A DNA stretch of 33,765 bases from an uncultured virus (IMG/VR IMGVR_UViG_3300028886_002149) (Duplodnaviria > Heunggongvirae > Uroviricota > Caudoviricetes), in IMG/VR virus record IMGVR_UViG_3300028886_002149; one strand, 5' to 3'. Position numbers and translations under genes: made by a program. This document shows, piece after piece, positions 20,361-33,765 of the stretch. Each line of letters starts with the position of its first letter. Position 1 is the first letter of the stretch. A model generated the notes under the pieces. The model was given only the letters and a program-made list of their open reading frames with translations, was not told the origin of the DNA and ran no database searches.

Positions 20361-20807
20361 ATGACAGATCGGGGTTTGAGGTTGGATGATATGAAGTGTG
20401 AACTGTTAGCAGAATCAAATTATGCGTTGCTGCTGGACTTTATTGATGATGTGAACACAAAATACGATGAAACCGTGCTGAAAGCGTTTTTGAATGAAAA
20501 GAACGCATACGGTTATATTGCCGTAGACGACGGAAAAGCAATTGGATTTGCGTACGGTTATGTATTAAATGAACCTGATGGACGAAAGACTTTTTATCTG
20601 CACGCGATAGATATTATGACCGGTTATCAGAATCTTGGTTACGGAACGGAATTGGTCAGATTTGTGTATGCACATTCAAAAAGCCTGGGTTGCCGCAAAA
20701 TGTTTTTGATGACAAACACCGGCAACGTGTCTGCTTGCAGATGCTATGAAAAGGCGGGTGGAATAAGCGCTGCAGCTGACGTTGTCATGTATGAATACAA
20801 GAAATGA
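20361..20807 (+). CDS. GNAT family N-acetyltransferase (start may be 20391)
   Basis: Acetyl-CoA motif YQNLGYG, and N..A..CYEKAG. Confidence 0.85.
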   Translation: MTDRGLRLDDMKCELLAESNYALLLDFIDDVNTKYDETVLKAFLNEKNAYGYIAVDDGKAIGFAYGYVLNEPDGRKTFYLHAIDIMTGYQNLGYGTELVRFVYAHSKSLGCRKMFLMTNTGNVSACRCYEKAGGISAAADVVMYEYKK

Positions 20808-20862
20808 TTCAGCATGTAGTATGATCAGCTCGAAAAATCGATGTTTGTAAACGGAGGGAACT

Positions 20863-21018
20863 ATGTTAAAAGATTATGCAATAGACAAGCCAATTCTTGA
20901 AACAGACAGATTGATCATTCGTGTGATTAACGAAAAAGATGCTGATGATTTAAAAGAGTGGTTGGGAAGAGATGAAATTTACACATATTGGGGAAGCTTT
21001 ATGAATATTGCTATATGA
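20863..21018 (+). pseudogene. Truncated RimJ/RimL-type GNAT, 51 aa
   Basis: SD GGAGG; MLKDYAIDKPILETDRLIIRVINEKDADDL... is a typical RimJ/RimL N-terminus; stops before the CoA-binding motif. Confidence 0.65.
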
Positions 21019-21098
21019 AAAAATCGTAAATTGAACAATTGATAGTAGTAAGTAATATTACAAGATAATGTAGATTCCAATGGCTGAATGTTTTGGGC

Positions 21099-22007
21099 TC
21101 ATTGGCTACCTAATAACTTGGTTTTTCGATATTCACCCGGAGTCAAACCATAGTGTCTTTTGAAAGTTCTGCAAAAATGATCGAAGCTTTTAAACCCACA
21201 TTCTGCGGAAATTGTGCTTATTTTCTTTTCTGTATCCGATAATGCTGCCGCAGCAATTCTAAGCCTGTATGCAATGAGGTAGTTAACCGGTGTCATGTGC
21301 AGATATTGCTTGAAAAGATTCAGGGCAGTGCTTTTACTTATGCTGACTTTACATGAGATATCATTAAGAGAGATATCTTCTGGGTAGTGTTCATGTATAT
21401 ACTGCATCATCATCTGCAGCCTGGATAAAGAGGCTGCTGAAGCCCCCTGCTTTTCTTCTACAAGATCAAAGTTTATGCTTCTGTAGATGCTCAGCCATAA
21501 ATGCTGTATAAGCGATGATACAAGCAGTTCTTCATTCCTCTCTTCTTTATGAATTTGAATGATCTTACGAAAATCAGATAAAATGGAAGCATTGGAACGT
21601 TCCTGCTCTCTAAATATGATGCAGGGGATTGATGAATTTGTTACAGGCAGAACATATTTTTTGAATATAAGGCTGTCGTCGGGAGATATAAAGGAAGGCA
21701 AAAAAAGAAAATTTGGAATGGATGCTGCGCAGGGAGAATAGAACTTGTGCAGTATTTTTGTGTTTATGAATATAGCATCACCTTCATTTAATGTGAAATC
21801 CTGATCACCAACCCACATGGTCACGGTACCGCTCTCTATAAGAACAAATTCAAGTTCGGTGTGCCAGTGCCAGTCAATACAGTTAAAGTCAAACATGTCC
21901 ATATTTTCATAGTAGAAATGAAAAGGATAATCCGGACTGCCATGGCTTACAGTTTCCATCAGACTGTCATCGGTTGTTATATGCGGATAAGAAGCACTAA
22001 AAACCAT
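21099..22007 (-). CDS. AraC family transcriptional regulator (cupin + double HTH)
   Basis: Cupin HWHTELE; C-terminal CGFKSFDHFCRTFKRHYGLTPGEYR; SD GAGGGGG on the minus strand. Confidence 0.93.
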   Translation of the reverse strand: MVFSASYPHITTDDSLMETVSHGSPDYPFHFYYENMDMFDFNCIDWHWHTELEFVLIESGTVTMWVGDQDFTLNEGDAIFINTKILHKFYSPCAASIPNFLFLPSFISPDDSLIFKKYVLPVTNSSIPCIIFREQERSNASILSDFRKIIQIHKEERNEELLVSSLIQHLWLSIYRSINFDLVEEKQGASAASLSRLQMMMQYIHEHYPEDISLNDISCKVSISKSTALNLFKQYLHMTPVNYLIAYRLRIAAAALSDTEKKISTISAECGFKSFDHFCRTFKRHYGLTPGEYRKTKLLGSQ

Positions 22008-22125
22008 AATCCCCCCTCAACTACGATATAATACAATTATTATACGCTTTTATACAATGTAAATCCATGAAAAATAATATATTATACAAATATGTACATA
22101 ACTCAATGAATACGAGGAGAAAAAT

Positions 22126-23313
22126 ATGCCTAACTATCAGAAAACGAAAACAGCGTGCTATTTGGGATTTATAACGCAGGCAATTGCTGCTAATTTTGCG
22201 CCGCTGCTTTTCCTTAAGTTTCATAGTGACTACGGAATCTCGCTTGGAAACATAGCGCTTATATCCACGGTTTATTTCTTTACCCAGTTGTTGATAGACC
22301 TTTTCTGTGCAAAGTTTGTGGACAGGATCGGGTACAGGGTCTCAATCGTGATATCAGAAGTCTTTTCGGCAGCAGGGCTGATAGGACTTGCCTTTCTGCC
22401 GGATATGATGCCTGATGCGTTTGCGGGGATTCTCATCAGCGTAACGGTATATGCCATGGGCTGCGGACTTATTGAAGTACTGGCAAGCCCTATTGTTGAA
22501 GCGTGCCCGTTTGAGAATAAGGAAGCTACCATGAGTCTTTTGCATTCCTTTTACTGCTGGGGCTCAGTGGGAACAATAGTGATCTCAACGCTGTTCTTTG
22601 CGATATTCGGTATGGACAGCTGGAGATGGCTTGCTGTGATCTGGGCGTTGGTTCCGGCAATAAACATATATAACTTCTTAACCTGTCCCATAGTCCCGAT
22701 CGTTGAAGAAGGGCAGGGAATGGGTATCAGACAGCTGGGGAAAAGGCCTCTTTTCTGGGTCTCCATATGCCTTATGGTTTGTGCCGGCGCATCAGAGCTT
22801 GCAATGGCACAATGGGCATCAGCATATGCCGAGGCAGCGCTTGGATTATCCAAGACGGTTGGTGATCTTATGGGACCGTGTATGTTTGCGGTAACGATGG
22901 GTATAAGCCGTGCTATATATGGTAAATATGGTGAGAAATTGAATCTGATGCGATTCATGATCGGATCGGGGGCTTTATGTGTCTTCTGCTATCTGCTGGC
23001 ATCGCTTTCATCAAATCCTGTCATGGGACTGATCGGATGTGTGTTGTGCGGATTTTCTGTCGGTATAATGTGGCCGGGAACAATAAGCATATCATCCCAA
23101 AAGTTTCCCACAGGCGGAACTGCGATGTTTGCACTACTTGCAATGGCAGGAGATCTCGGCGGAAGTATAGGACCTGCGATTGTCGGCAAGGTTACACAGT
23201 ATGCCGGGGATAATATCAGAACAGGAATGAGAGTAGGACTTATTTTTCCGGTTGTGCTCATCCTAATGCTTATTCTATTGAGCAAGACGGCAGTAAGAAA
23301 AGCTCAAAGCTAA
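22126..23313 (+). CDS. MFS transporter (substrate unknown)
   Basis: Many hydrophobic segments, motif-A-like FVDRIGYR; SD GAGGAG; divergent from araC. Confidence 0.9.
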   Translation: MPNYQKTKTACYLGFITQAIAANFAPLLFLKFHSDYGISLGNIALISTVYFFTQLLIDLFCAKFVDRIGYRVSIVISEVFSAAGLIGLAFLPDMMPDAFAGILISVTVYAMGCGLIEVLASPIVEACPFENKEATMSLLHSFYCWGSVGTIVISTLFFAIFGMDSWRWLAVIWALVPAINIYNFLTCPIVPIVEEGQGMGIRQLGKRPLFWVSICLMVCAGASELAMAQWASAYAEAALGLSKTVGDLMGPCMFAVTMGISRAIYGKYGEKLNLMRFMIGSGALCVFCYLLASLSSNPVMGLIGCVLCGFSVGIMWPGTISISSQKFPTGGTAMFALLAMAGDLGGSIGPAIVGKVTQYAGDNIRTGMRVGLIFPVVLILMLILLSKTAVRKAQS

Positions 23314-23378
23314 GAATCTGATGATACATAAAATCGGAAAATAACTTATTGATTAATATACATGGAAATGGATCAGCT

Positions 23379-24203
23379 ATGGGACAAGAATTACGTCATA
23401 ATGGGGAATACGTTATCGTTAAAAATCATAAGATTCATATTTTTCGTGCAGGGAATAATAACGGACCTAAACTCGTTTTTTTGTCAGGCTCAGGCACAGT
23501 GGCCCCGGTATATGATTTCAAAATTTTATATCAGAAACTTTTTAATGATTTTGAGATAATTGTTATCGAGAAATTCGGATATGGTTACTCGGATTTATAC
23601 GATGCACCAACCGACATTGATTCATTGATTTCTTATCATAGAGAGGCGTTATTAAAAATAGGCGAGGAAGGCCCATTTATTCTCCTGCCGCATTCATTGT
23701 CCGGGCTTGAGGCAATACGATGGAAACAGACATATCCGGAGGAAATTAAAGCAATTATAGGACTTGATATGGCAGTTCCTGCGCAGTACTTAAGCTGGGG
23801 ACAGGAAGAGATTGATAAGCGGACCAACCAGATAATCAAACTACAGAAGCTTCATAAGAAAGGCCTGTTATTCTGGTATCCTTTGAATAAGCGTGGACTT
23901 AATAAAGATGACATTAAACAACAAAAACTTCTGTGGAAAAGAAACGGAATGAATGATTGTTATATCGGTGAAGCAAAAACTGTGTTGGACAATGCAAAGC
24001 TTGTTGACAAAAACGGTGAAATAGATTGCCCGATTCTGATGTTTGTATCTGATGGTAAGCAGGTATCCGCGAATTGGATTCAGTATCAGAAGGAGTTCGC
24101 AGAACGTAACAATGCAAAGATCATTCAATTAAACTGCGGACATTATGTGCATTATTATGAGAGCGATTGCATCAGTGAAGAAATCATGAGGTTTATTGAA
24201 TAA
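23379..24203 (+). CDS. Alpha/beta fold hydrolase (start uncertain, possibly 5'-truncated)
   Basis: LVFLSGSG, GYGYS, nucleophile elbow PHSLSG, C-terminal GHYVH. No clear SD. Confidence 0.8.
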   Translation: MGQELRHNGEYVIVKNHKIHIFRAGNNNGPKLVFLSGSGTVAPVYDFKILYQKLFNDFEIIVIEKFGYGYSDLYDAPTDIDSLISYHREALLKIGEEGPFILLPHSLSGLEAIRWKQTYPEEIKAIIGLDMAVPAQYLSWGQEEIDKRTNQIIKLQKLHKKGLLFWYPLNKRGLNKDDIKQQKLLWKRNGMNDCYIGEAKTVLDNAKLVDKNGEIDCPILMFVSDGKQVSANWIQYQKEFAERNNAKIIQLNCGHYVHYYESDCISEEIMRFIE

Positions 24204-24223
24204 AACCGGAAGATATTTTAGTC

Positions 24224-24251
24224 TTGACGATAAAGAAGCATGGTGTAAAAT
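24224..24251 (+). promoter_or_regulatory. Sigma-A-type promoter for the SCP2 gene
   Basis: TTGACG-N16-TAAAAT. Confidence 0.55.
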
Positions 24252-24286
24252 AGCGTTAAAATTGCCACGGAAAGGAGCAACAGATC

Positions 24287-24700
24287 ATGAACTATGAGGA
24301 ACTTGTAAAAAAGGCAAAGCAAGCAGCCAAGAAGATGGATGTCAGCACTATCAACGAGCATATCGCCGTACAGATAGATGTTGTTGGTGAAGGCGAAGGT
24401 GCGTTTTACGTTGAGGTAGCAGACGGAAAGGTATCTGTTGAACCTTATGAATACTATGATAATGACTGCAAGGTAACGGCAAGCGCAGATGTGATCACAG
24501 CGCTGTTTGCCGGCAAGCTGAACGTGGATGAGGCGCTTGCCAATGGAAGCGTTTCTGTTGAGGGCGACGGAGGAAAGGCACTGGCGATCATCAATGCTTT
24601 GAAGGTTGCTCCTGAGAAGAAGCCCGCAGCTGCAAAGAAACCGGCAGCAAAGAAAGCTCCGGCAAAGAAGACGACAGCAAAGAATACCACGAAGAAATAA
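24287..24700 (+). CDS. SCP2 sterol/lipid-binding domain protein with Lys/Ala-rich tail
   Basis: GEGEGAFYVEV...GKL....AL..G...VEGD; tail KKPAAAKKPAAKKAPAKK; SD AAAGGAG. Confidence 0.8.
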   Translation: MNYEELVKKAKQAAKKMDVSTINEHIAVQIDVVGEGEGAFYVEVADGKVSVEPYEYYDNDCKVTASADVITALFAGKLNVDEALANGSVSVEGDGGKALAIINALKVAPEKKPAAAKKPAAKKAPAKKTTAKNTTKK

Positions 24701-24724
24701 ACAAAAACCGAAAATAAGATAACC

Positions 24725-24770
24725 AAAGCGGTGGCTTTAGATCGAGAGATTTAGGGCCACCGCTTTTTTT
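24725..24770 (+). terminator. Intrinsic terminator directly upstream of the methylase/helicase gene
   Basis: AAAGCGGTGGCTTTAGATC-GAGA-GATTTAGGGCCACCGCTTT; the T run totals 7 (24764-24770). Confidence 0.85.
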
Positions 24771-24804
24771 ATAAACAAAAAAACGGAAGGAGGAAATGTA
24801 TCAA

Positions 24805-27800
24805 ATGGCGAGAAGATACCATGAGATCAAGGGACTGGCTGAGTACACGGCCAAGGTCATCGTGTCGGATGAGCAGGAGTGGAAGAAGTTTCTGCACACG
24901 GCGGGACATATGTATAAGTACCCGTTCAGAGAGCAGATGTTGATCTATGCTCAGAGACCTGATGCAACGGCGTGTGCTTCGCTGGAACTGTGGAATGAGA
25001 AGATGAACTGCTGGGTCAACAAAGGCGCTCAGGGCATCGCGCTCATCGACGAGGAGGGTGTGCACCGGTCGGGACTGAAATATGTCTTTGATGTCAAGGA
25101 TGTGCATGAGGCGAGGTTCATCGGGCGTAAACCTACCCTATGGCAGATGGAGGAGAGGCATAAGGATTATGTGATTGACTCCCTGGAGAGGATATACGGA
25201 GAGACGGATGCGAGCCGTTCTTTTGAGAGCAGGATCATGGAACTGGCGAACCGTATCGCTTCGGAGATGGCTCCGGATATCGTATCGGATCAGCTGACTA
25301 TGTCCGTGGAAGGGAGCTACCTTGACGGACTGGATGATCTGAATCTGGAGGTGAGGCTGCAGCAAACCCTGGCGGCAAGTATCGCATATACCGTGCTTGA
25401 ACGCTGCGGCATGGATCCCGAGGATGTAGTCGGTGTTGAGTTCCCGTATCTGCACGAGTTTAATTCCATGGAGGCTCTGCCGGTTATGGGTGAGGCCACA
25501 GCTGAACTGACTGAGCCTCTGCTTCGTGAGATCGGAAGGTCGATATCCGTTTATGAGCGTGAGAAGGCTCAGGAGGCGGTCAGAGCCGCATATGATGAAC
25601 ATATCGAGCGTCAGAGCGTAAGTGCCGAGAAAGGACTTGCAAATGCGTCAGAGCGTGGCTATAATGCCTTAACGCCAGATATGCCGAAGCAGGGTAATGA
25701 ATATATCGAGAGCGCAAAGATAAGCGCGGAAAGGAGCAATTATGACAATAGAGTACATTCAGAGCGGGGATTTTCAGATTCCGAACCTGATAGCGAACAA
25801 GGAGCCGGAAGGAACGCTCACGAAATACGGACTGATGAGAAGGAACTTCTTGAAGAACAACAGGAGAGGAGTTTACAGCGGGATGCTTCTGAAGGGAACG
25901 CTGAAAGAACACCTACTGACGATACAGGAGCAGGCAGATCAGAGGATGGATCTGTTGACATCGCAGATGGCGAAAGACCAGGGCGTGGACGAGCAGATGA
26001 AACGCACCGATCAGATGAAGTGGGTAGGTCTGATGAACAACATCAGGGCATCGGCGGAGGAGATAGTTTTATCGGAGCTGATCTACAGCTAAGTCCACCG
26101 GAGGAAGAATTACAACAACTGAATCTATTCGATCTGTTCCCGAGCTTTGAGGAGCAGATGGGAACAATGATAGCAGCGGAGGCAAGTGTAAAGCACACAA
26201 AACCCGCTGCTTTTTCTTTGTCGGACGAGCAGATTGACGATATTCTGCGCACAGGCGGAGGTATGGAGGATTCCCGTAAGCGAATATATGCCAAGTATCA
26301 GGAACACAAATCTCCTGCAGAGATGGCGGCGTTTTTACAGGCTGAGTACCGTACTACCGGCAAGGGCTTTACCTTTGGCGATGATCCTGTATCCGTATGG
26401 TTTGACGAAAACGGAATGAAAGCAGGCTATGGCACATCCGCAAAGGAGAACACGGTTCTGGATATGGGCTGGGCTGAAATAGAGAGTCATATCAGGGGAT
26501 TGGTTGAGGGCGGCACATACATGAACCGCGCGGAGGCTTTCCTTGTTGATCAGACGGAGCGTCAGAGAGTGGCGAACCACATCTATTTCTTCTTCCGCGA
26601 CGGACTTGATGAAATGCCGGAGAGTTTGCAGATTGCAGGCAATAACTACCCCGACAGCGAAGCGCATATCATGGAGCTTTTATCCACCCCGGAGGGCAGG
26701 AATATCATAGCCGCAGAACTTGAAAAGGCAAAGGCTGCGCTGGATAGCGGAGAGGCAGAGCTTCGTTGGCGTTATATCAAATCTCCGGAGTATCTGCTTG
26801 ATGAAGTGGCTGATCTTGATACGGAGATGCTCACTTTTCCGACACCTGATGAGGTGGATATAAAGCAGGAGAGCTTTATCACACAGGATGAGATCGACGC
26901 GATCCTCACGGGCGGCAGTGGAGTGTCCGGCGGGAAGATCCGTATCTATGAGTTCTTTCAGCAGGGGCATGACAGCAAAGAGAATATCGCTTTTCTTAAG
27001 AATGAGTATGGTACCGGCGGCAGGTCTCATGCACTGATCGGAAATGACAGAAGCTGGGAAGACCATGATGCCAAGGGTATCAAGTTGTCCAAGGGCAATA
27101 TCATGGAGCCTTATGCGACGGCCATCCTTACATGGAATGTGGTAGAAAAACGCATCCGTGAGCTTGTCACTGCAGATCAGTTCCTGAACCAGGCTGAAAA
27201 GGAAGAACTGGAGTCAAGGCATCTGGAGGAAGCAGTCGAAGAACTGTCTGATCAGGAAACCGAGATAGAAACGGAAACTGAAGCACAGGCACAGGAGGAA
27301 GATATAAAGCTTGAATCCATTGTGCTTGACCTTACGCCGAGAGAGCCGGAGCAGGAGAAGGAGCAGGCTCGCGAGATCGACAAGACCGGCGCGACCAATT
27401 TCCGTATCACGGATGACAGACTAGGAGCAGGCGGCCCGAAGGAGAAGTTTAGAAGGAATATTGCTGCGATAGAGACCTTAAAGCAGGTTGAGAGCGAGAA
27501 TCGTGTGGCGACACCGGAAGAGCAGCAAATACTTTCCCAGTATGTCGGCTGGGGCGGTCTTGCAGATGCTTTTGATGAAAGCAAGAGTAACTGGTCGGAT
27601 GAATATGTTCAGCTGAAAGGACTGCTTACGGATGAGGAGTATAAGGCGGCAAGGGAGAGTACCCTAAATGCGCACTATACAAGTCCAGTGATCATTCGCA
27701 GTATCTATGAAGCTCTTGGAAATATGGGCTTTGAAAAAGGCAATGTCCTAGAGCCTGCCATGGGTGTCGGTAACTTCTTCGGTATGCTGCCTGAAAAGAT

Positions 27801-30800
27801 GCAGGACTCAAGGCTTTACGGTGTGGAGCTTGATGATATTACCGGACGCATCGCAAGGCAGTTATATCCCAAAGCGGATGTTCGTATCAGCGGATTTGAA
27901 AAGACTGATTTTCAGAACGATTTCTTTGATGTCGCTGTTGGAAATGTGCCCTTTGGTAATTATCAGGTGTCGGACAGAGCCTATGATAAGCTTGGTTTCC
28001 AGATCCATGATTATTTCTTTGCAAAGACGCTTGATAAGGTAAGACCGGGCGGTATCGTCGCATTTGTTACAAGTAAGGGCACAATGGATAAGCAGTCGTC
28101 ACAGGTGAGAAAGTACCTCGCGCAGAGGGCGGAGCTTGTGGGAGCGGTGAGACTTCCCAATACAGCCTTTAAGGAGAATGCCGGAACAGAAGTAACTTCC
28201 GACATTCTTTTTTTCAAGAAGCGTGACAGGCTGATGGATATCGAGCCGGACTGGGTACATCTGTCTACGGATCAGAATGGCATAGCCATGAACCAGTATT
28301 TCGTGGATCACCCGGAGATGATTGTGGGAAAGATGGCCGAGGTATCCGGACCTTTTGGAATGGAGACCGCCTGCGTGCCGGATGAGACGAGACCCTTTGA
28401 GGAGCAGCTTAGGGATGCAATCAGTCATATCAGTGCAACTTATGAAGCTGTGGAACTGGAAGAGGGCGAGGAACTTGCCTTTGATACCATACCTGCAGAT
28501 CCGAACGTGAAGAATTACAGCTACTGCGTGGTGGATGATAAGGTGTATTACCGTGAAAACAGCATCATGAAGCCTGCCGACGTATCGGAGAGCATGGAAG
28601 AGCGCATCAAAGGTATGATCGGTATCCGTGACTGTACCCAGGAGTTGATCACAATGCAGATGGAAGAGTATTCCGATGCGGCGATCACAGCAAAACAGCA
28701 GGAACTGAATGATCGGTATGATGATTTTTCAAAGAAATTCGGGCTGATCAGCTCACAGACCAATAAGAGAGCATTTAATCAGGATTCTTCATACTGTCTG
28801 CTCTGTTCATTGGAAAAACTGGATGATGAGGGCAAGTTTGAAGGCAAGGCGGATATGTTCACCAAGCGCACCATCAAGCGTGCGGAAGTGGTGGAGAGCG
28901 TTGATACCGCAAGTGAAGCCCTGGCTGTATCCTTATCGGAAAAGGCAAAGGTGGATCTGCCGTATATGGCACAGCTTGCGGGCAAGAGCGAGGATGAGAT
29001 CACCGAAGAGCTTGCCGGAGTAATCTTTAAGAACCCGCTGACAGACAGATGGGAGACTGCGGATGAGTACCTGTCCGGAAATGTTAGGGAGAAGCTTGCC
29101 GTGGCAAGGAATTATGCGGAGAATCATCCGGAGTTTGCGGTAAACGTGGCATCCCTTGAGAGGGTGCAGCCCAAAGAACTGGATGCTTCGGAGATCGAGG
29201 TACGCATCGGTGCCACATGGATAGATCCTCATTATATCGAGGACTTCATGCGCGAGACTTTTCAGACACCGGATTATCTCTTCAACCGGGATGTAGTCGG
29301 AGTGCAGTTTTCCGATATCACGGGCCAGTGGAATGTGAAGGGCAAGAATGCCGATTATGGCAATACCCTCGTGCATAACACCTTCGGTACCGGCAGGGCG
29401 AACGCTTATAAGATCCTGGAGGATTCCCTTAACTTAAAGGACACCCGTATCTATGATACCGTGGTGGAAGATGGTAAGGAAAAGCGTGTACTTAACAAAA
29501 AGGAAACTACCCTTGCCAGTCAGAAGCAGGAAGCAATCCGGGAGGCATTTAAGGACTGGGTATTCAGAGATCCTGAGAGGAGAGCTGCTCTTACGGCAAA
29601 GTATAATGAGCTGTTCAATTCAACAAGACCGAGGGAGTATGACGGATCACATCTTAAGTTCCCGGGCATGACACCTGACATCATATTAAAACCGCATCAG
29701 TTAAATGCCGTGGCGCATGTGTTATACGGAGATAATACTCTCCTTGCGCATTGTGTCGGTGCGGGCAAGACCTTTGAAATGACAGCGGCGGCCATGGAAA
29801 GTAAGAGACTGGGGCTTTGTCATAAGTCGCTCTTCGTAGTGCCGAACCATCTGACAGAGCAATGGGCAAGTGATTTCTTAAGATTGTATCCCGGAGCCAA
29901 TATCCTGGCGGCAACCAAAAAGGACTTTGAGCCGGCAAACCGTAAGAAGTTTTGCTCCCGTATCGCTACGGGTGATTATGATGCGGTGATCATCGGGCAC
30001 AGTCAGTTTGAAAAGATCCCGCTTTCCACGGAAAGACAGATCGCGATCATTGAAAGACAGATTGATGAGATCGAAGCGGCAATAGCACTGGCAAAGGCTG
30101 AGAGGGGTGAGCGGTACACCATCAAGGAAATGGAGAAAAGCCGTAAATCCCTGATCGCTAAACTGGATAAGCTGAACGATACTACCCGTAAGGATAATGT
30201 CGTAACCTTTGAGCAGCTTGGTGTGGACAGGCTATTTGTAGATGAAAGTCATAATTACAAGAACCTGTTTCTCTATACCAAAATGAGAAATGTGGCGGGT
30301 ATAGCGCAGACCGAGGCACAGAAGTCGCAGGATATGTTTAACAAGTGCCAGTACCTTGACGAGATCACAGGCGGTAAGGGCGTGACCTTTGCAACCGGTA
30401 CACCGATCAGCAACAGCATGACGGAACTTTATACCAATATGCGTTATCTGCAGTATGGCACGCTTCAGAAGATGGGACTGGGACAGTTTGATTCATGGGC
30501 TGCAACCTTTGGAGAAACACAGACAGCGATAGAGCTTGCACCGGAGGGAACCGGATACAGAGCAAAGACAAGGTTTGCGAAGTTCTTTAACCTGCCGGAG
30601 CTGATATCACTATTCAAAGAGTCGGCGGATATACAGACACCGGATATGCTGAAATTACCTGTGCCGGAGGCAGAGTATGAGAATGTTACGCTTAAGCCTT
30701 CCGAAGCACAGAAGCAGATGGTGGAGTCATTGGCAGACAGAGCAGAGAGAGTGCGTAACCGTATGGTGGATTCTTCCGTCGATAATATGCTTAAGATAAC

Positions 30801-32430
30801 CAATGACGGACGGAAGCTTGCACTTGACCAGAGGCTTATGAATGATATGCTGCCGGATGATCCAAACAGTAAGGCGAGTGTATGTGTGGAGAAGGCTTTT
30901 GAGATATGGGAGCAGACAGCAGATAAGAGGTCGGCACAGCTGATCTTTTGCGACCTAAGTACGCCGAAAGGAGACGGAACATTCAATGTATATGAGGATA
31001 TCAGAAGTAAACTGGTGGCGAAGGGAGTGCCACCCGAGGAGATAGCTTTTATCCATGATGCGAATACGGAACTGAGGAAAGCGGAGTTGTTTGCGAAGGT
31101 AAGAAGCGGGCAGGTCCGTTTTTTATTGGGATCTACCGCAAAGATGGGAGCCGGTACGAACGTGCAGGATAAGCTGATCGCGTTACATCATCTGGATGTG
31201 CCATGGAGACCGTCAGACATTGAACAGCAGGAGGGCCGAATCTTAAGGCAGGGTAATACCAATCCGAAGGTGAAGATCTTCCGGTATGTCACGGAAGGGA
31301 CATTTGATGCGTACAGTTGGCAGCTGATCGAGAATAAACAGAAGTTCATCGGTCAGATCATGACGAGTAAATCTCCGGTCAGAAGCTGTGAGGATATCGA
31401 CGATGCTGCGCTTACCTATGCGGAAGTAAAAGCACTGGCAACGGGCAATCCCTACATCAAGGAAAAGATGGATCTGGATATCCAGGTATCAAAGCTTAAA
31501 CTCATGAAGGCAAATCATACCAGTCAGAAGTACAGACTGGAGGATGACATTGCGCAGAGGTATCCGAAGAAGATATCGGCTCTTAAGGAAAAGATCGAGG
31601 GCTTAAAGGCGGATATCGCTGATTACAATGCACGAAAGCCTGCGGATAAGGAGCTGTTTACCATGACGGTGGCAGGTAAAACCTATGAAGACAGGAAAGA
31701 AGCCGGAGAAGCCATCATTGGTATGTGCAGGGAGATGAAGACTGCCAACATACCTGTCGGTATCGGTGAATACCTCGGGATGAAGATGGCGGCGACCTTT
31801 GATTCTTTCAGCAGGAAGTTCACCTTGGCACTGAAAGGGAACTTAAGCCACACCATCGAGGTCGGTTCGGATCCTTCGGGTAACATTACCCGTATCAATA
31901 ATGCTCTTGATGGTATGGGAAAGCAGCTTGAAGAAGCCGTGGCAAGGCTTGAAAATGTGGAGCATCAGCTTGAGACTGCAAAGATCGAAGTGGTAAAACC
32001 CTTCGCACAGGAAGCGGAGCTTGCAGAAAAGCTTGACAGGCTGGCGGAGCTGAATGCCCTACTCAACATGGACGAAAAGGGTGATGAGGCCGTGGATATG
32101 GATGATGAAGCACCGAAGCAGGAAGGCCAGGATAAAGGACAGGACGTGACTGACGGAAAGACCGAAGCACCTGCACAGGAGGCAGAACAGCATGGCAGCG
32201 TATCTTATGTTGATAATACGGCAGAGATCCGTAAAGCATCCGAGCCGAAGGTGGAATACGGCAGTAAGATATCCGAACCGAAAACAGAATACAGCGCAAA
32301 GAAACCGGAAAAGCCTGATAGGGCAAGTGGGAAGCCGTTTCATGACAAGCTGGAGGCAAAGAAAGGCGAGGTGGCAAAGCAGTCGCCCCCAAAGCCCGCA
32401 GAGGTAAAGGATAAGCATACATCATTATAA
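24805..32430 (+). CDS. Giant ArdC-N-like / N6-adenine methyltransferase / SNF2-type helicase (DarB-like) protein, ~2541 aa
   Basis: N-terminal YKYPF..Q.LIYAQRP.ATACA; MTase VLEPAMGVGNF and VGNVPF; helicase HCVGAGKT, FVDESH, ATGTPISN and PWRPSDIEQQEGRILRQGN. ATG 24805 is better spaced from SD AGGAGG than 24796. Confidence 0.92.
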   Translation: MARRYHEIKGLAEYTAKVIVSDEQEWKKFLHTAGHMYKYPFREQMLIYAQRPDATACASLELWNEKMNCWVNKGAQGIALIDEEGVHRSGLKYVFDVKDVHEARFIGRKPTLWQMEERHKDYVIDSLERIYGETDASRSFESRIMELANRIASEMAPDIVSDQLTMSVEGSYLDGLDDLNLEVRLQQTLAASIAYTVLERCGMDPEDVVGVEFPYLHEFNSMEALPVMGEATAELTEPLLREIGRSISVYEREKAQEAVRAAYDEHIERQSVSAEKGLANASERGYNALTPDMPKQGNEYIESAKISAERSNYDNRVHSERGFSDSEPDSEQGAGRNAHEIRTDEKELLEEQQERSLQRDASEGNAERTPTDDTGAGRSEDGSVDIADGERPGRGRADETHRSDEVGRSDEQHQGIGGGDSFIGADLQLSPPEEELQQLNLFDLFPSFEEQMGTMIAAEASVKHTKPAAFSLSDEQIDDILRTGGGMEDSRKRIYAKYQEHKSPAEMAAFLQAEYRTTGKGFTFGDDPVSVWFDENGMKAGYGTSAKENTVLDMGWAEIESHIRGLVEGGTYMNRAEAFLVDQTERQRVANHIYFFFRDGLDEMPESLQIAGNNYPDSEAHIMELLSTPEGRNIIAAELEKAKAALDSGEAELRWRYIKSPEYLLDEVADLDTEMLTFPTPDEVDIKQESFITQDEIDAILTGGSGVSGGKIRIYEFFQQGHDSKENIAFLKNEYGTGGRSHALIGNDRSWEDHDAKGIKLSKGNIMEPYATAILTWNVVEKRIRELVTADQFLNQAEKEELESRHLEEAVEELSDQETEIETETEAQAQEEDIKLESIVLDLTPREPEQEKEQAREIDKTGATNFRITDDRLGAGGPKEKFRRNIAAIETLKQVESENRVATPEEQQILSQYVGWGGLADAFDESKSNWSDEYVQLKGLLTDEEYKAARESTLNAHYTSPVIIRSIYEALGNMGFEKGNVLEPAMGVGNFFGMLPEKMQDSRLYGVELDDITGRIARQLYPKADVRISGFEKTDFQNDFFDVAVGNVPFGNYQVSDRAYDKLGFQIHDYFFAKTLDKVRPGGIVAFVTSKGTMDKQSSQVRKYLAQRAELVGAVRLPNTAFKENAGTEVTSDILFFKKRDRLMDIEPDWVHLSTDQNGIAMNQYFVDHPEMIVGKMAEVSGPFGMETACVPDETRPFEEQLRDAISHISATYEAVELEEGEELAFDTIPADPNVKNYSYCVVDDKVYYRENSIMKPADVSESMEERIKGMIGIRDCTQELITMQMEEYSDAAITAKQQELNDRYDDFSKKFGLISSQTNKRAFNQDSSYCLLCSLEKLDDEGKFEGKADMFTKRTIKRAEVVESVDTASEALAVSLSEKAKVDLPYMAQLAGKSEDEITEELAGVIFKNPLTDRWETADEYLSGNVREKLAVARNYAENHPEFAVNVASLERVQPKELDASEIEVRIGATWIDPHYIEDFMRETFQTPDYLFNRDVVGVQFSDITGQWNVKGKNADYGNTLVHNTFGTGRANAYKILEDSLNLKDTRIYDTVVEDGKEKRVLNKKETTLASQKQEAIREAFKDWVFRDPERRAALTAKYNELFNSTRPREYDGSHLKFPGMTPDIILKPHQLNAVAHVLYGDNTLLAHCVGAGKTFEMTAAAMESKRLGLCHKSLFVVPNHLTEQWASDFLRLYPGANILAATKKDFEPANRKKFCSRIATGDYDAVIIGHSQFEKIPLSTERQIAIIERQIDEIEAAIALAKAERGERYTIKEMEKSRKSLIAKLDKLNDTTRKDNVVTFEQLGVDRLFVDESHNYKNLFLYTKMRNVAGIAQTEAQKSQDMFNKCQYLDEITGGKGVTFATGTPISNSMTELYTNMRYLQYGTLQKMGLGQFDSWAATFGETQTAIELAPEGTGYRAKTRFAKFFNLPELISLFKESADIQTPDMLKLPVPEAEYENVTLKPSEAQKQMVESLADRAERVRNRMVDSSVDNMLKITNDGRKLALDQRLMNDMLPDDPNSKASVCVEKAFEIWEQTADKRSAQLIFCDLSTPKGDGTFNVYEDIRSKLVAKGVPPEEIAFIHDANTELRKAELFAKVRSGQVRFLLGSTAKMGAGTNVQDKLIALHHLDVPWRPSDIEQQEGRILRQGNTNPKVKIFRYVTEGTFDAYSWQLIENKQKFIGQIMTSKSPVRSCEDIDDAALTYAEVKALATGNPYIKEKMDLDIQVSKLKLMKANHTSQKYRLEDDIAQRYPKKISALKEKIEGLKADIADYNARKPADKELFTMTVAGKTYEDRKEAGEAIIGMCREMKTANIPVGIGEYLGMKMAATFDSFSRKFTLALKGNLSHTIEVGSDPSGNITRINNALDGMGKQLEEAVARLENVEHQLETAKIEVVKPFAQEAELAEKLDRLAELNALLNMDEKGDEAVDMDDEAPKQEGQDKGQDVTDGKTEAPAQEAEQHGSVSYVDNTAEIRKASEPKVEYGSKISEPKTEYSAKKPEKPDRASGKPFHDKLEAKKGEVAKQSPPKPAEVKDKHTSL
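25637..25665 (+). promoter_or_regulatory. Internal sigma-A promoter within the helicase gene, upstream of the nested tnpV-like ORF
   Basis: TTGCAA-N17-TATAAT. Confidence 0.7.
25742..26092 (+). CDS. tnpV: TnpV family protein, nested in the +1 frame of the helicase gene, 116 aa
   Basis: GD..IPNL, KYG.MRR..LK, GV.EQMK..DQMKWVG.MNNIR..AEEIV..ELIY signature; SD AAAGGAG 5 nt before the ATG. Confidence 0.82.
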   Translation: MTIEYIQSGDFQIPNLIANKEPEGTLTKYGLMRRNFLKNNRRGVYSGMLLKGTLKEHLLTIQEQADQRMDLLTSQMAKDQGVDEQMKRTDQMKWVGLMNNIRASAEEIVLSELIYS

Positions 32431-32488: not shown

Positions 32489-32635
32489 ATGGAAGAAAAA
32501 GAAGTAGTGCTCACAAGCGTGGAGCAGTTTAAGGAATATCTTAAGAATACCGCAGATGATAAGACAGTGATCAGCGTGGTATTGGAGCTTGCCGGAAAGG
32601 ATGCGGATAAGGAAGGCGGTGAAGATGATGGCTGA
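32489..32635 (+). CDS. Small acidic hypothetical protein, 48 aa (not in the ORF track)
   Basis: SD GAAAGGA; MEEKEVVLTSVEQFKEYLKNTADDKTVISVVLELAGKDADKEGGEDDG; overlaps the next start codon. Confidence 0.55.
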   Translation: MEEKEVVLTSVEQFKEYLKNTADDKTVISVVLELAGKDADKEGGEDDG

Positions 32636-33765
32636 TGAATATGAACTGAAGCAGGTAAAGGTACGGCTGAAACTGGCTGAGGCGGAGCCTTTATACAGTA
32701 CGGAGCAGATCACAACGCCCGATAAGGCGGCAGAGGTTATGGCGCAGGCACTTTCACAGATGGACAGGGAGTATTGTTGCGTGGTGAATCTGGACGGAGC
32801 CAATCATCCCATCAATTTCAATGTGGTCAGCATCGGGGATGTGAACCAGGCGCATGTGCCGATCCAGAATGTATTTAAGAGTGCGATTCTCTCTAATGCC
32901 AGCAGCATCATGATGTTTCATAATCATCCGAGCGGATCCGTACAGGCAAGTCGTGAAGATATCGACGTGACAAAGAGGCTGATAGAAGCCGGAAAGATCA
33001 TGAATATCCCGGTGCTTGACCATATCATTGTGGGTGGCGGCACTGCGGAGCGGTTCAGCTTCAAGGAAGCCAATCCGGAGATGTTCAATGTATCGGAGAG
33101 AGCGGCGTATGCAGTTCATGAGCCGATAGAGCATAAGCCCATAGAAGGGGATCATTTCAGTATCTATCAGCTGAAGGATGAAGATTCCCTGCATTATATT
33201 CGATTCGAGGGACTCACAAGGCTGCATAAGGAAGGCAATGAGGTTGAGCGTGACAATTATGTTCTTATCTACGAAGCAGCCTTAAAGCCCGGGGCTTCCC
33301 TGGATGATCTGTATTATGAGTTTAATATGCAGCATCCGAAGGACTTCCGTGGGCATTCCATGTCCGTCAGCGATATCGTAGTTCTTCACAAAGGGAATGA
33401 GGATAAGGCATTTTATGTGGATACCTTTGGCTTTACCGAAGTACCGGAGTTTCTGCTTGAAAAGGTGCAGGAGCAGCAGATGGATATGGACGAGGCGGCC
33501 TATAAGCTGGGCGACCGCTATATCAGCATACAGAGGACGGATGAGGGCTTTGATTATTCCATCCATGATGAGGCTTATCATCTGTTGGACGGCGGTGTGC
33601 TGGATAATCCCGATATCAGTATCGGAGAGGTGCTTAAACAGATCACGGATGAACTGAAACAGCCGGTATATGATGCGGAGCATGACAGATATACTCATAC
33701 CGAGCTGCAGGGGAATATCCGACAGAAGGATGAGCCGGTAGCGGTTGATTTTGATGATCTGATGG
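32628..33765 (+). CDS. RadC/JAB + YodL + LPD16-like polyvalent protein, 3'-partial (not in the ORF track)
   Basis: Manual translation: JAB FHNHPSG...S..D...VLDHIIV; YodL GHSMSVSDIVV...FYVDTFGF; then YISIQRTDEGFDYSIHD...LLDGGVLDNPD. Open to the window end. Confidence 0.85.
   Translation, partial: MADEYELKQVKVRLKLAEAEPLYSTEQITTPDKAAEVMAQALSQMDREYCCVVNLDGANHPINFNVVSIGDVNQAHVPIQNVFKSAILSNASSIMMFHNHPSGSVQASREDIDVTKRLIEAGKIMNIPVLDHIIVGGGTAERFSFKEANPEMFNVSERAAYAVHEPIEHKPIEGDHFSIYQLKDEDSLHYIRFEGLTRLHKEGNEVERDNYVLIYEAALKPGASLDDLYYEFNMQHPKDFRGHSMSVSDIVVLHKGNEDKAFYVDTFGFTEVPEFLLEKVQEQQMDMDEAAYKLGDRYISIQRTDEGFDYSIHDEAYHLLDGGVLDNPDISIGEVLKQITDELKQPVYDAEHDRYTHTELQGNIRQKDEPVAVDFDDLM

Follow-up and report, generated by a model that had tools for sequence, protein, structure and literature searches.

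The Rz1 gene of phage lambda is contained within Rz and read in the +1 frame of the same strand; both proteins are made from a shared late transcript, and they bind each other. In Bacillus subtilis the 46-codon gene comS, which is limited to a narrow species group, lies inside srfAB, where it uses the srfA promoter and a ribosome-binding site of its own. To our knowledge, long same-strand nested bacterial genes with solid evidence are few. This study concerns a candidate of that kind in the IMG/VR record IMGVR_UViG_3300028886_002149, a stretch of 33,765 nucleotides that was analysed whole and is called the window here. The window is a conjugative element of Bacillota type, and one of its genes is a giant polyvalent gene of 2,544 codons. 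Comparison with relatives indicates that the linker DNA of this giant gene very probably also holds a complete expression cassette for a second gene, tnpV, in a conserved same-strand arrangement of a gene within a gene. The features on which this reading turns are the following.

24796..32430, plus strand: giant polyvalent gene, 2,544 amino acids from its first ATG, with an ArdC-like head, a linker, and a DarB-like N6-methylase/SNF2 helicase
24796..25635, plus strand: ArdC-like head module, about residues 1-280, placed by an AlphaFold2 model and a structural search
25637..25642, plus strand: candidate -35 hexamer TTGCAA of an internal promoter, within host codons for L-A-N
25660..25665, plus strand: candidate -10 hexamer TATAAT of the same promoter, from host codons for Tyr-Asn, ending 76 nt 5' of the tnpV ATG
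25730..25736, plus strand: Shine-Dalgarno sequence AAAGGAG of tnpV, 5 nt 5' of its ATG
25741..26091, plus strand: host codons 316-432, an acidic, linker-like segment overprinted on tnpV
25742..26092, plus strand: tnpV, with an ATG start, 116 codons and a TAA stop (26090-26092), in the +1 frame relative to the giant gene

The tnpV open reading frame (ORF) lies wholly inside 24796..32430, on the same strand and in a different frame. Its product matches Pfam family PF14198 over its full length, at 135.2 bits (cut-off 27) and E 1.2e-39 with residues 4-114 aligned to profile positions 1-111 of 111, and it matches PHROG 24764 at 2.8e-35. AlphaFold2 predicts a beta-hairpin followed by five helices, with a predicted local distance difference test score (pLDDT) of 89.5. 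Foldseek found nothing in the PDB better than E 1.2 for this fold, and the best result of a wide VIA structural search, Z 5.9, is in the noise range for helical proteins; no Xis-like fold turned up in either search, which does not exclude one. A search of the ESM Atlas gave no usable TnpV match outside PF14198.

Read in the host frame, the same bases encode an acidic and polar segment (isoelectric point 4.4, grand average of hydropathy -1.49, 73% D/E/K/R/S/G/P/Q/N). The AlphaFold2 model of the head has a mean pLDDT of 75 and falls below 50 at residues 280-315, so the folded head would end near residue 280, and the promoter, leader and tnpV would all lie within the disordered spacer of the giant protein, which is about 160 residues long. 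A preliminary description, made from the letters of the window, had claimed a 116-residue ORF nested in the +1 frame of the giant ORF, preceded by AAAGGAG and by TTGCAA-N17-TATAAT with the -10 ending 76 nt 5' of the ATG, with a host reading that looks like a charged, disordered linker and a nested reading with the full TnpV signature. The ORF coordinates, the sequence, the composition of the host segment and the end-to-end hidden Markov model (HMM) match bear out each of these.

Like Rz1, tnpV is a small gene nested in the +1 frame on the same strand inside a larger gene. Unlike the small Rz gene, the host here is a 2,544-codon multidomain gene, and tnpV sits in a disordered linker with what appears to be its own promoter; both products are predicted from sequence. 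The likeness to comS is that of a short out-of-frame gene with its own ribosome-binding site inside a giant multidomain gene of Bacillota, but tnpV is 116 codons long and nested in many lineages, and the widespread Pfam family to which it belongs includes free-standing genes as well. TnpV proteins of the Tn4451/Tn4453 and Tn6104 type belong to the same Pfam family and are small proteins of Clostridia mobile elements without a tested function. Unlike the nested gene, those copies stand alone next to genes for recombinases or relaxases or next to tet(O), and the frame at -1 to them closes at 0-95 amino acids.

DarB of phage P1 is counted with the polyvalent proteins. The available text of Iyer et al. 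2017 (PMC5512222), on the polyvalent proteins that conjugative elements and phages encode, describes an ArdC-type N-terminal head that binds single-stranded DNA (ssDNA), then a methylase and an SNF2 helicase, encoded beside type IV secretion system (T4SS) genes. The giant gene of the window appears to have that architecture, with another polyvalent gene (RadC-YodL-LPD16) next to it on the 3' side. The presence of tnpV within the linker sets the window apart from the description in that text (PMC5512222), where "overlapping", "internal promoter" and "PF14198" have no occurrences and the two uses of "nested" refer to a hairpin fold. A nested tnpV is likewise not described in the titles and abstracts on TnpV, with PMC3158075, or in the literature found on polyvalent, overlapping and nested genes, in a search that left supplements and subscription journals outside. 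Nested out-of-frame genes are known, and tnpV seems unusually well supported among them. It stands out by its length, its spread, its site in a disordered linker of a giant multidomain gene and its apparent private promoter, which marks the sequence of the host protein.

Relatives of the locus and the expression signals of tnpV

Searching contigs from one genome per species with a TnpV alignment gave 563 relatives, of which the best 80, at 60-92% identity, were retained. The host frame, which is the -1 frame relative to tnpV, is open through the whole of tnpV in 76 of these best 80, and in 72 of those 76 (72 of the 80 loci) it runs on to the end of the locus, for more than 1,100 codons where the locus permits. 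In the other four nested loci (L044, L067, L071 and L076) the long frame stops early. Four of the 80 loci (L063, L077, L079 and L080) carry a standalone tnpV, with the host frame closed at 43-80 amino acids. All 80 loci have a third frame that closes at 4-27 amino acids. Judged by open frames, these counts show that both frames are maintained in relatives.

Nesting extends well beyond these close relatives. PF14198 was searched in 400 Clostridia genomes, drawn evenly from the class of one carrier, and 151 of them had a match (150 matches listed and 171 more, about 321 in all). Among the 30 best-scoring loci 2 were nested and 28 were not. A further 60 loci, chosen among the listed matches lying more than 1.5 kb from the contig start, held 61 matches, 25 nested and 36 not. 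This gives 27 nested copies among the 91 classified of about 321 matches, or about 30%, and suggests that the nested arrangement is present in much of the Clostridia. Host-frame lengths are bimodal, either below 100 amino acids or above 800 and reaching the end of the locus, with decayed exceptions such as L130, L156 and L178. Nested copies in this sample always have 265-295 host codons before tnpV.

Nested TnpV copies span 27% to 92% identity to the TnpV of the window, and their Pfam matches are still full length. One genome (G003) carries three nested pairs of tnpV and giant gene (L086, L089 and L090), whose TnpV proteins are 66, 40 and 27% identical to that of the window, so very divergent versions coexist. 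The nested state was also found in two plasmids of Monoglobus and Subdoligranulum (TnpV identity 47-49%) and in two scaffolds named "UNVERIFIED Bacteriophage sp." Free-standing copies sit after relaxase or recombinase genes, or before tet(O); those beside tet(O) are in Enterococcus and Lactococcus plasmids and in phage phiNJ3.

A tree of 133 TnpV sequences less than 95% identical (64 nested, 69 free-standing) needs at least 7 changes of state, against 40-45 in five shuffles. Most free-standing copies fall into two large clades, and the nested ones form a single broad assemblage that includes a few free-standing escapes; the tree is unrooted and built from a short protein, and it does not settle the direction or exact number of changes. 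Three of the free-standing copies inside the nested clade (L063, L077 and L079) lie 3' of a 464-residue relaxase-like gene. About 330-350 nt after tnpV these three loci have a conserved ORF of 110-112 amino acids (VEKREKNLLDI...), and after it comes variable cargo of restriction-modification type, either an HsdR-like gene or a Vsr and C5-methylase pair. In the rearranged locus L156 (G305:C216), a head module is present with a nested tnpV whose host frame stops one codon beyond tnpV, and another tnpV, free-standing, lies 160 nt further downstream. This locus may have been caught in the course of decay, or of an escape from nesting.

Gene callers give one frame or the other, so tnpV is probably missing systematically from annotated conjugative elements. 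The preliminary description had expected annotation to drop one of the two frames, and this fits the finding that 79 of the 120 listed TnpV protein clusters are known only from contigs shorter than 3 kb, where the giant ORF is cut.

The expression signals were compared in a codon alignment of the window and 72 nested loci, with L054, L060, L066 and L071 left out for insufficient flank. In the window, TTGCAA-N17-TATAAT scores 10 of 12 against the sigma-70-type consensus. The -35 is TTGCAA in 70 of the 73 aligned loci and TTGAAA in 3 (43 and 3 of the 46 non-redundant loci), the -10 is TATAAT in 71 and TACAAT in 2 (TATAAT in 45 of 46), and the spacer is 17 nt in all 73. The tnpV ATG is retained in 73 of 73. 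GGAG or GAGG lies within 20 nt of this ATG in 55 loci, and the other 18 have the weaker AGGGG or AGGA alone.

These bases vary less than the host frame alone would ask of them. Among the 46 representatives, host wobble diversity in the hexamers is 0.00, 0.00, 0.04 and 0.00, versus 0.26-0.73 in five spacer codons, and the Tyr and Asn of the -10 are coded TAT and AAT in 45-46 of 46 loci. The hexamer bases are retained even where the host residue changes, from Leu to Ile or Val, or from Ala to Glu. A promoter score of at least 10 of 12 was found in the 160 nt upstream of 78 of 107 nested copies, and in none of 69 standalone copies or 105 control segments inside giant genes. More distant nested lineages have TTTGCA-N18-TATAAT or weaker variants. 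The comparison shows that TTGCAA-N17-TATAAT is apparently conserved as DNA beyond the needs of the host coding frame, and it is this conservation in relatives, not the window alone, that puts the promoter beyond chance. The protein motif "LAN...YNAL" of the giant proteins is best read as the imprint of the promoter, because the hexamer wobble positions hardly vary and the bases are kept when residues change. The locus would then be an example of a promoter embedded in, and shaping, protein-coding sequence.

The cassette would run in the order sigma-70-type promoter, leader of about 70 nt, Shine-Dalgarno sequence, ATG, 116 codons in the +1 frame, and TAA. RNA polymerase would start near 25672, inside the giant gene, and ribosomes would start at 25742, so that free TnpV would be made without reliance on the giant protein's own transcript or translation. 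Right after the -10, most relatives conserve the bases TTA AAG CGT GAA AGC (host LKRES) including the wobble positions, 0.85-0.99 identical in the comparison of 25666-25700 with L001-L080; the window and its closest kin differ at this site and have LTPDM instead. The conserved bases may be the start region, a leader or an operator of the tnpV transcript. No terminator-like site was found 3' of tnpV up to 27000, so an internal transcript would continue into the methylase-helicase part. The preliminary description allowed for an N-terminally shortened helicase expressed from this promoter; a host-frame ATG at about 26158, preceded by GAGGAG in a region that aligned poorly across loci, might serve as its start.

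The strongest alternative is that tnpV is made from the long mRNA of the giant gene only, by internal ribosome entry at its Shine-Dalgarno sequence, and that the upstream motif is conserved as a protein motif (LAN...YNAL) or as the DNA site of a regulator. Several observations weaken the case for a private promoter and lean this way. Promoter-like matches in 24000-27000 occur at chance level (4, versus 3.1 +/- 1.3 in shuffles), and the motif fades among the more remote nested copies (29 of 107 score 7-9). The RNA record consists of four RNA-labelled runs (X5, X6, X9 and X11) with short contig fragments of 90-100% likeness, some of them over the 3' end of tnpV (26012-26109), and one read-length piece at 25682-25844; these runs are Logan contigs only, from which transcript starts, strand and level cannot be shown. 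The Shine-Dalgarno sequence and ATG would also suffice for translation from any covering transcript. Against internal entry alone, it is the bases that are kept and not the residues: a change from L to I or V keeps the TT, and a change from A to E gives TTGAAA. The neighbouring wobble positions do vary and the spacer length is constant, the motif is absent from all of the standalone upstream regions and control segments, and it lies in the segment modelled as disordered (residues 280-315), where a strict protein motif is not expected. We consider internal entry unlikely, and the promoter-driven cassette the better account of the conserved bases.

Selection on the two frames

Selection was estimated from uncorrected Nei-Gojobori proportions of synonymous (pS) and nonsynonymous (pN) differences among 46 representatives less than 97% identical, with L076 left out for a gap. 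In the overlap, the tnpV frame has pS 0.497, pN 0.154 and pN/pS 0.31, and the host frame has pS 0.162, pN 0.247 and pN/pS 1.52. In the flanks the host frame returns pS 0.640, pN 0.232 and pN/pS 0.36.

The ratio of diversity at third and first host codon positions (p3/p1) was computed per 25-codon window in 40 representatives aligned along about 2.5 kb of the giant gene. It is 0.38-0.52 in four windows over 25759-26058 and 1.2-3.1 elsewhere, with two intermediate windows at the borders. Sorted by tnpV codon position, diversity in the overlap is 0.198, 0.148 and 0.328, and the host wobble position is the least variable. Because p3/p1 drops only in 25759-26058, the alignment shows amino-acid selection apparently switching to the tnpV frame exactly within the nested ORF. 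By the same measures it shows that amino-acid selection in the overlap acts, as far as substitution patterns can tell, on TnpV.

The host frame leaves a different kind of trace. When TnpV was held fixed and its synonymous codons were redrawn with the codon usage of the giant gene, 6.9 host-frame stops were expected per sequence and 0.02% of draws were free of them, whereas the host frame is stop-free in 46 of 46 real non-redundant loci. At equal pN, silent change is lower in nested than in free-standing tnpV in every bin, in comparisons whose pairs are not independent: pS is 0.338 nested versus 0.444 free-standing in the pN bin 0.05-0.10, 0.536 versus 0.659 in the bin 0.15-0.20, and 0.658 versus 0.807 in the bin 0.30-0.40. 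The lower pS of nested tnpV is the effect that a second reading frame would cause. Codon redraws and pS together show a host frame that is seemingly held stop-free and that slows silent change in tnpV. The preliminary description had proposed true dual coding, to be judged by the frames of homologues and by the avoidance of stop codons. The switch of frame-specific selection at the tnpV borders, the conservation of the promoter at silent sites, the two open frames in relatives and the rarity of stop-free draws all agree with it.

Two features of the data count against the strength of this conclusion. The loci are related by descent, and many are carried by mobile elements that spread, which means that the counts cannot be taken as independent; the pattern holds, however, after de-replication to 46 loci. 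The flank pN/pS is based on just 18 fully occupied codons, and the analysis in 25-codon windows is the better flank control.

Another possibility is that the TnpV frame is a silent relic, held open only through selection on the host linker or on the DNA, and that nested copies make no TnpV. Openness alone is weak evidence here: with the host linker protein fixed and its codons redrawn, the tnpV frame stays stop-free in 12% of draws (up to 34%), which makes this a weak converse test, and the contig-only RNA data are uninformative on expression. The pattern of variation is what makes a relic very improbable. Changes in the overlap follow the codon positions of tnpV, and the pN/pS values of the two frames are opposite to those expected from selection on the host frame. 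Full-length Pfam matches are also retained in nested copies as divergent as those described above, and the ATG is kept throughout the alignment.

Conversely, there might be no giant protein here, but a head gene, tnpV and a methylase-helicase gene that are separate, with a host frame that reads through by accident. The host frame does look like non-functional sequence and has a pN/pS above 1, and the long frame ends early in four of the 76 nested loci. Chance read-through, however, is expected at the 0.02% of the redraws and was found in every non-redundant locus. Head and methylase-helicase lie in one frame in an ORF that reaches the locus end in most of the best 80 relatives, and also in distant lineages, and an unfused intermediate (head gene, tnpV and helicase gene separated by stops) was looked for in the 1.3-4 kb flanks of 70 standalone copies and none was seen. 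Three accidentally joined genes are thus extremely improbable, and this explanation is close to refuted.

A single giant chain with a second gene in its linker DNA also bears on how the giant proteins are read. Residues 230-520 of the giant protein match 1,659 clusters at E of 0.001 or less, in a search among proteins of 1,399-4,452 amino acids; the 120 matches listed among them have 99-100% query coverage and 47-100% identity. The stretch over tnpV is gap-free in 19 aligned long homologues (47-87% identity) despite its linker-like look. The "linker" that more than 1,600 giant protein clusters conserve without gaps would then be the alternate reading of tnpV and not a protein motif, which affects domain definitions. 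The giant protein would read the tnpV bases as spacer, with a spacer sequence dictated by tnpV.

The older of the two frames is probably tnpV, since its product is folded, the gene also exists on its own, and the host reading resembles a linker and has a pN/pS above 1. The linker may have arisen when an upstream head gene fused through tnpV to a methylase-helicase gene. The preliminary description spoke of tnpV being absorbed into the giant gene; the case for this direction of origin consists of the folded state of TnpV and the linker-like character of the host frame.

The giant protein, its head and TnpV

The giant gene would make one chain, in which the ArdC-like head is followed by the disordered linker and by a DarB-like methylase/SNF2 helicase. 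A database copy of the protein, P0003, begins at the second Met and has 2,541 amino acids. Two further regions of the gene were placed by sequence models.

27895..28137, plus strand: N6-adenine methylase motif region, residues 1034-1114, from Pfam Eco57I and NCBIfam
29683..31254, plus strand: SNF2/ResIII helicase core and Helicase_C, residues 1630-2153, from Pfam, with partial NCBIfam DrmD/SNF2 matches

In the helicase core, ResIII scores 28.1 bits (Pfam cut-off 22.5) and SNF2-rel scores 24.9 bits (cut-off 24.9); Helicase_C, at 19.8 bits, is under its Pfam cut-off. In the methylase region the Pfam Eco57I match (E 8.7e-5, 23.1 bits) is under the cut-off of 25.3, and the NCBIfam MAD2 methyltransferase match is partial only. 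The segment before the methylase region matches the PHROG "DarB-like antirestriction" at 6.6e-18.

The preliminary description had called the head ArdC-N. In a wide structural search with the head, ArdC of plasmid R388 (6sna_A) ranks first, with Z 7.6, a root mean square deviation of 5.0 and 210 of 265 residues aligned; the next row has Z 5.8. The first 315 residues had no Pfam match at E up to 10, no PHROG match and no PDB sequence match at E up to 1, and Foldseek gave nothing for the head at E up to 0.001. The fold match ranks first but the sequence models and Foldseek are blank, so the head is called ArdC-like and not a member of the ArdC family, with modest support. The likeness in the earlier label is kept and the family membership is not.

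An HMM of the head module found it upstream of 108 of 111 nested tnpV copies and near 1 of 70 free-standing copies; the 111 include three loci counted twice (L086-L088 duplicate L018, L003 and L002). The head (315 amino acids, 16-row alignment) was then co-folded with TnpV (18-row alignment), along with three controls. The co-fold scored 0.89 (runs 0.00, 0.89 and 0.89) versus 0.00 for the best control. In the calibration set 116 of 157 solved complexes attained a mark of 0.89, as did 2 of 215 mismatched pairs. At least 42% of the contacts are shared between the runs, and the partner pLDDT is at least 74. The co-fold is not remembered from a solved structure, because no solved TnpV relative or complex exists.

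On the TnpV side the predicted interface comprises residues 1, 3, 5, 10-20, 38, 40-47 and 49-52, in the hairpin and the second helix. On the head side it comprises residues 8-19, 43-53, 74-98, 165-170 and 225-237, including alignment-invariant columns such as F44, Q53, V74, G80, I81, D85, L94, Y96 and F98. The result supports, but does not show, binding of TnpV to the ArdC-like head. The preliminary description had suggested that TnpV partners the helicase: the co-fold and its controls do support a partner for TnpV, and that predicted partner is the ArdC-like head and not the helicase.

Other observations speak against a partnership of TnpV and an ArdC head, or qualify it. The ArdC-like label hangs on Z 7.6, a borderline value. 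One of the three co-fold runs scored 0.00, and the alignments were custom-made and unpaired, so the calibration applies only roughly. The TnpV interface residues are not more conserved than the rest of the protein (0.63 versus 0.66 in nested copies, 0.56 versus 0.58 in standalone copies), which neither helps nor hurts the binding idea. In addition, of the 70 standalone copies 69 lack a head-like ORF within their 1.3-4 kb flanks, with L156 as the exception, and because these copies have no ArdC-like gene beside them, TnpV can evidently work without an adjacent head.

With these points in mind, free TnpV might bind the ArdC-like head through its N-terminal beta-hairpin and second helix, and serve as its small partner or chaperone, masking or escorting this presumed ssDNA-binding, transfer-associated module. 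VirE1 of Agrobacterium, a small helical protein encoded by a separate upstream gene, binds VirE2, which itself binds ssDNA and is a substrate for export by a type IV secretion system. For the proposed role of TnpV toward the ArdC-like head, VirE1 and VirE2 are an analogy only, and binding here is only predicted. In the fullest form of this idea, which we find conceivable but rather doubtful, TnpV is a dedicated VirE1-like chaperone or mask over the DNA-binding face of the ArdC-like header in the donor, and the position of its gene, together with a promoter of its own, in the linker of its client keeps the pair together in horizontal transfer. Binding to the head is a concrete, testable lead for TnpV function. 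If TnpV is a partner of the head, the TnpV family gains a function, and the conserved "linker motif" of hundreds of giant proteins is the shadow of a second gene.

The co-fold sets TnpV against the head like a neighbouring domain, as it would if TnpV were an in-frame domain of the giant protein reached through two compensating frameshifts, programmed or from assembly errors, but that explanation can be dismissed with near certainty, as more than 100 independent assemblies have identical frame relations, tnpV retains its own ATG, Shine-Dalgarno sequence and stop codon, the host frame is kept open across tnpV, which a shifted reading would not need, and standalone tnpV genes have the same length.

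The surrounding element

The giant gene belongs to a Lachnospiraceae-type conjugative element. The transfer genes in the window encode a T4SS coupling protein, TrbL_2, PrgI and a VirB4-like ATPase; an M23/NlpC-P60 hydrolase, a CD1107-like protein, topoisomerase III and DUF5688 are also present. A search of the window against Rfam matched no family. Two features lie directly 5' of the giant gene.

24725..24766, plus strand: terminator-like hairpin and T-run with a 19-pair stem, directly 5' of the giant gene
24785..24793, plus strand: Shine-Dalgarno sequence GGAAGGAGG of the giant gene, read from the sequence, with the ATG at 24796

The hairpin and T-run lie where the preliminary description had placed a terminator, at 24725. 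The strong Shine-Dalgarno sequence GGAAGGAGG is only about 20 nt 3' of the hairpin, and no promoter-like site was reported between the two. The giant gene may be transcribed by read-through, by antitermination or from a distant promoter.

Between the transfer genes and the giant gene is a cargo block (20361-24700) with a GNAT acetyltransferase, a divergent AraC regulator, an MFS transporter, an alpha/beta hydrolase and an SCP2-like protein, and with a promoter-like site of its own at 24224-24251. The second polyvalent-type gene, with a RadC JAB domain, YodL and LPD16, lies 3' of the giant gene at 32589-33764 and runs off the end of the window. At the left end of the element, a 379-residue protein (1750-2889) with three DUF4379 treble-clef zinc-finger repeats adjoins a DUF6017/HTH_36 protein.

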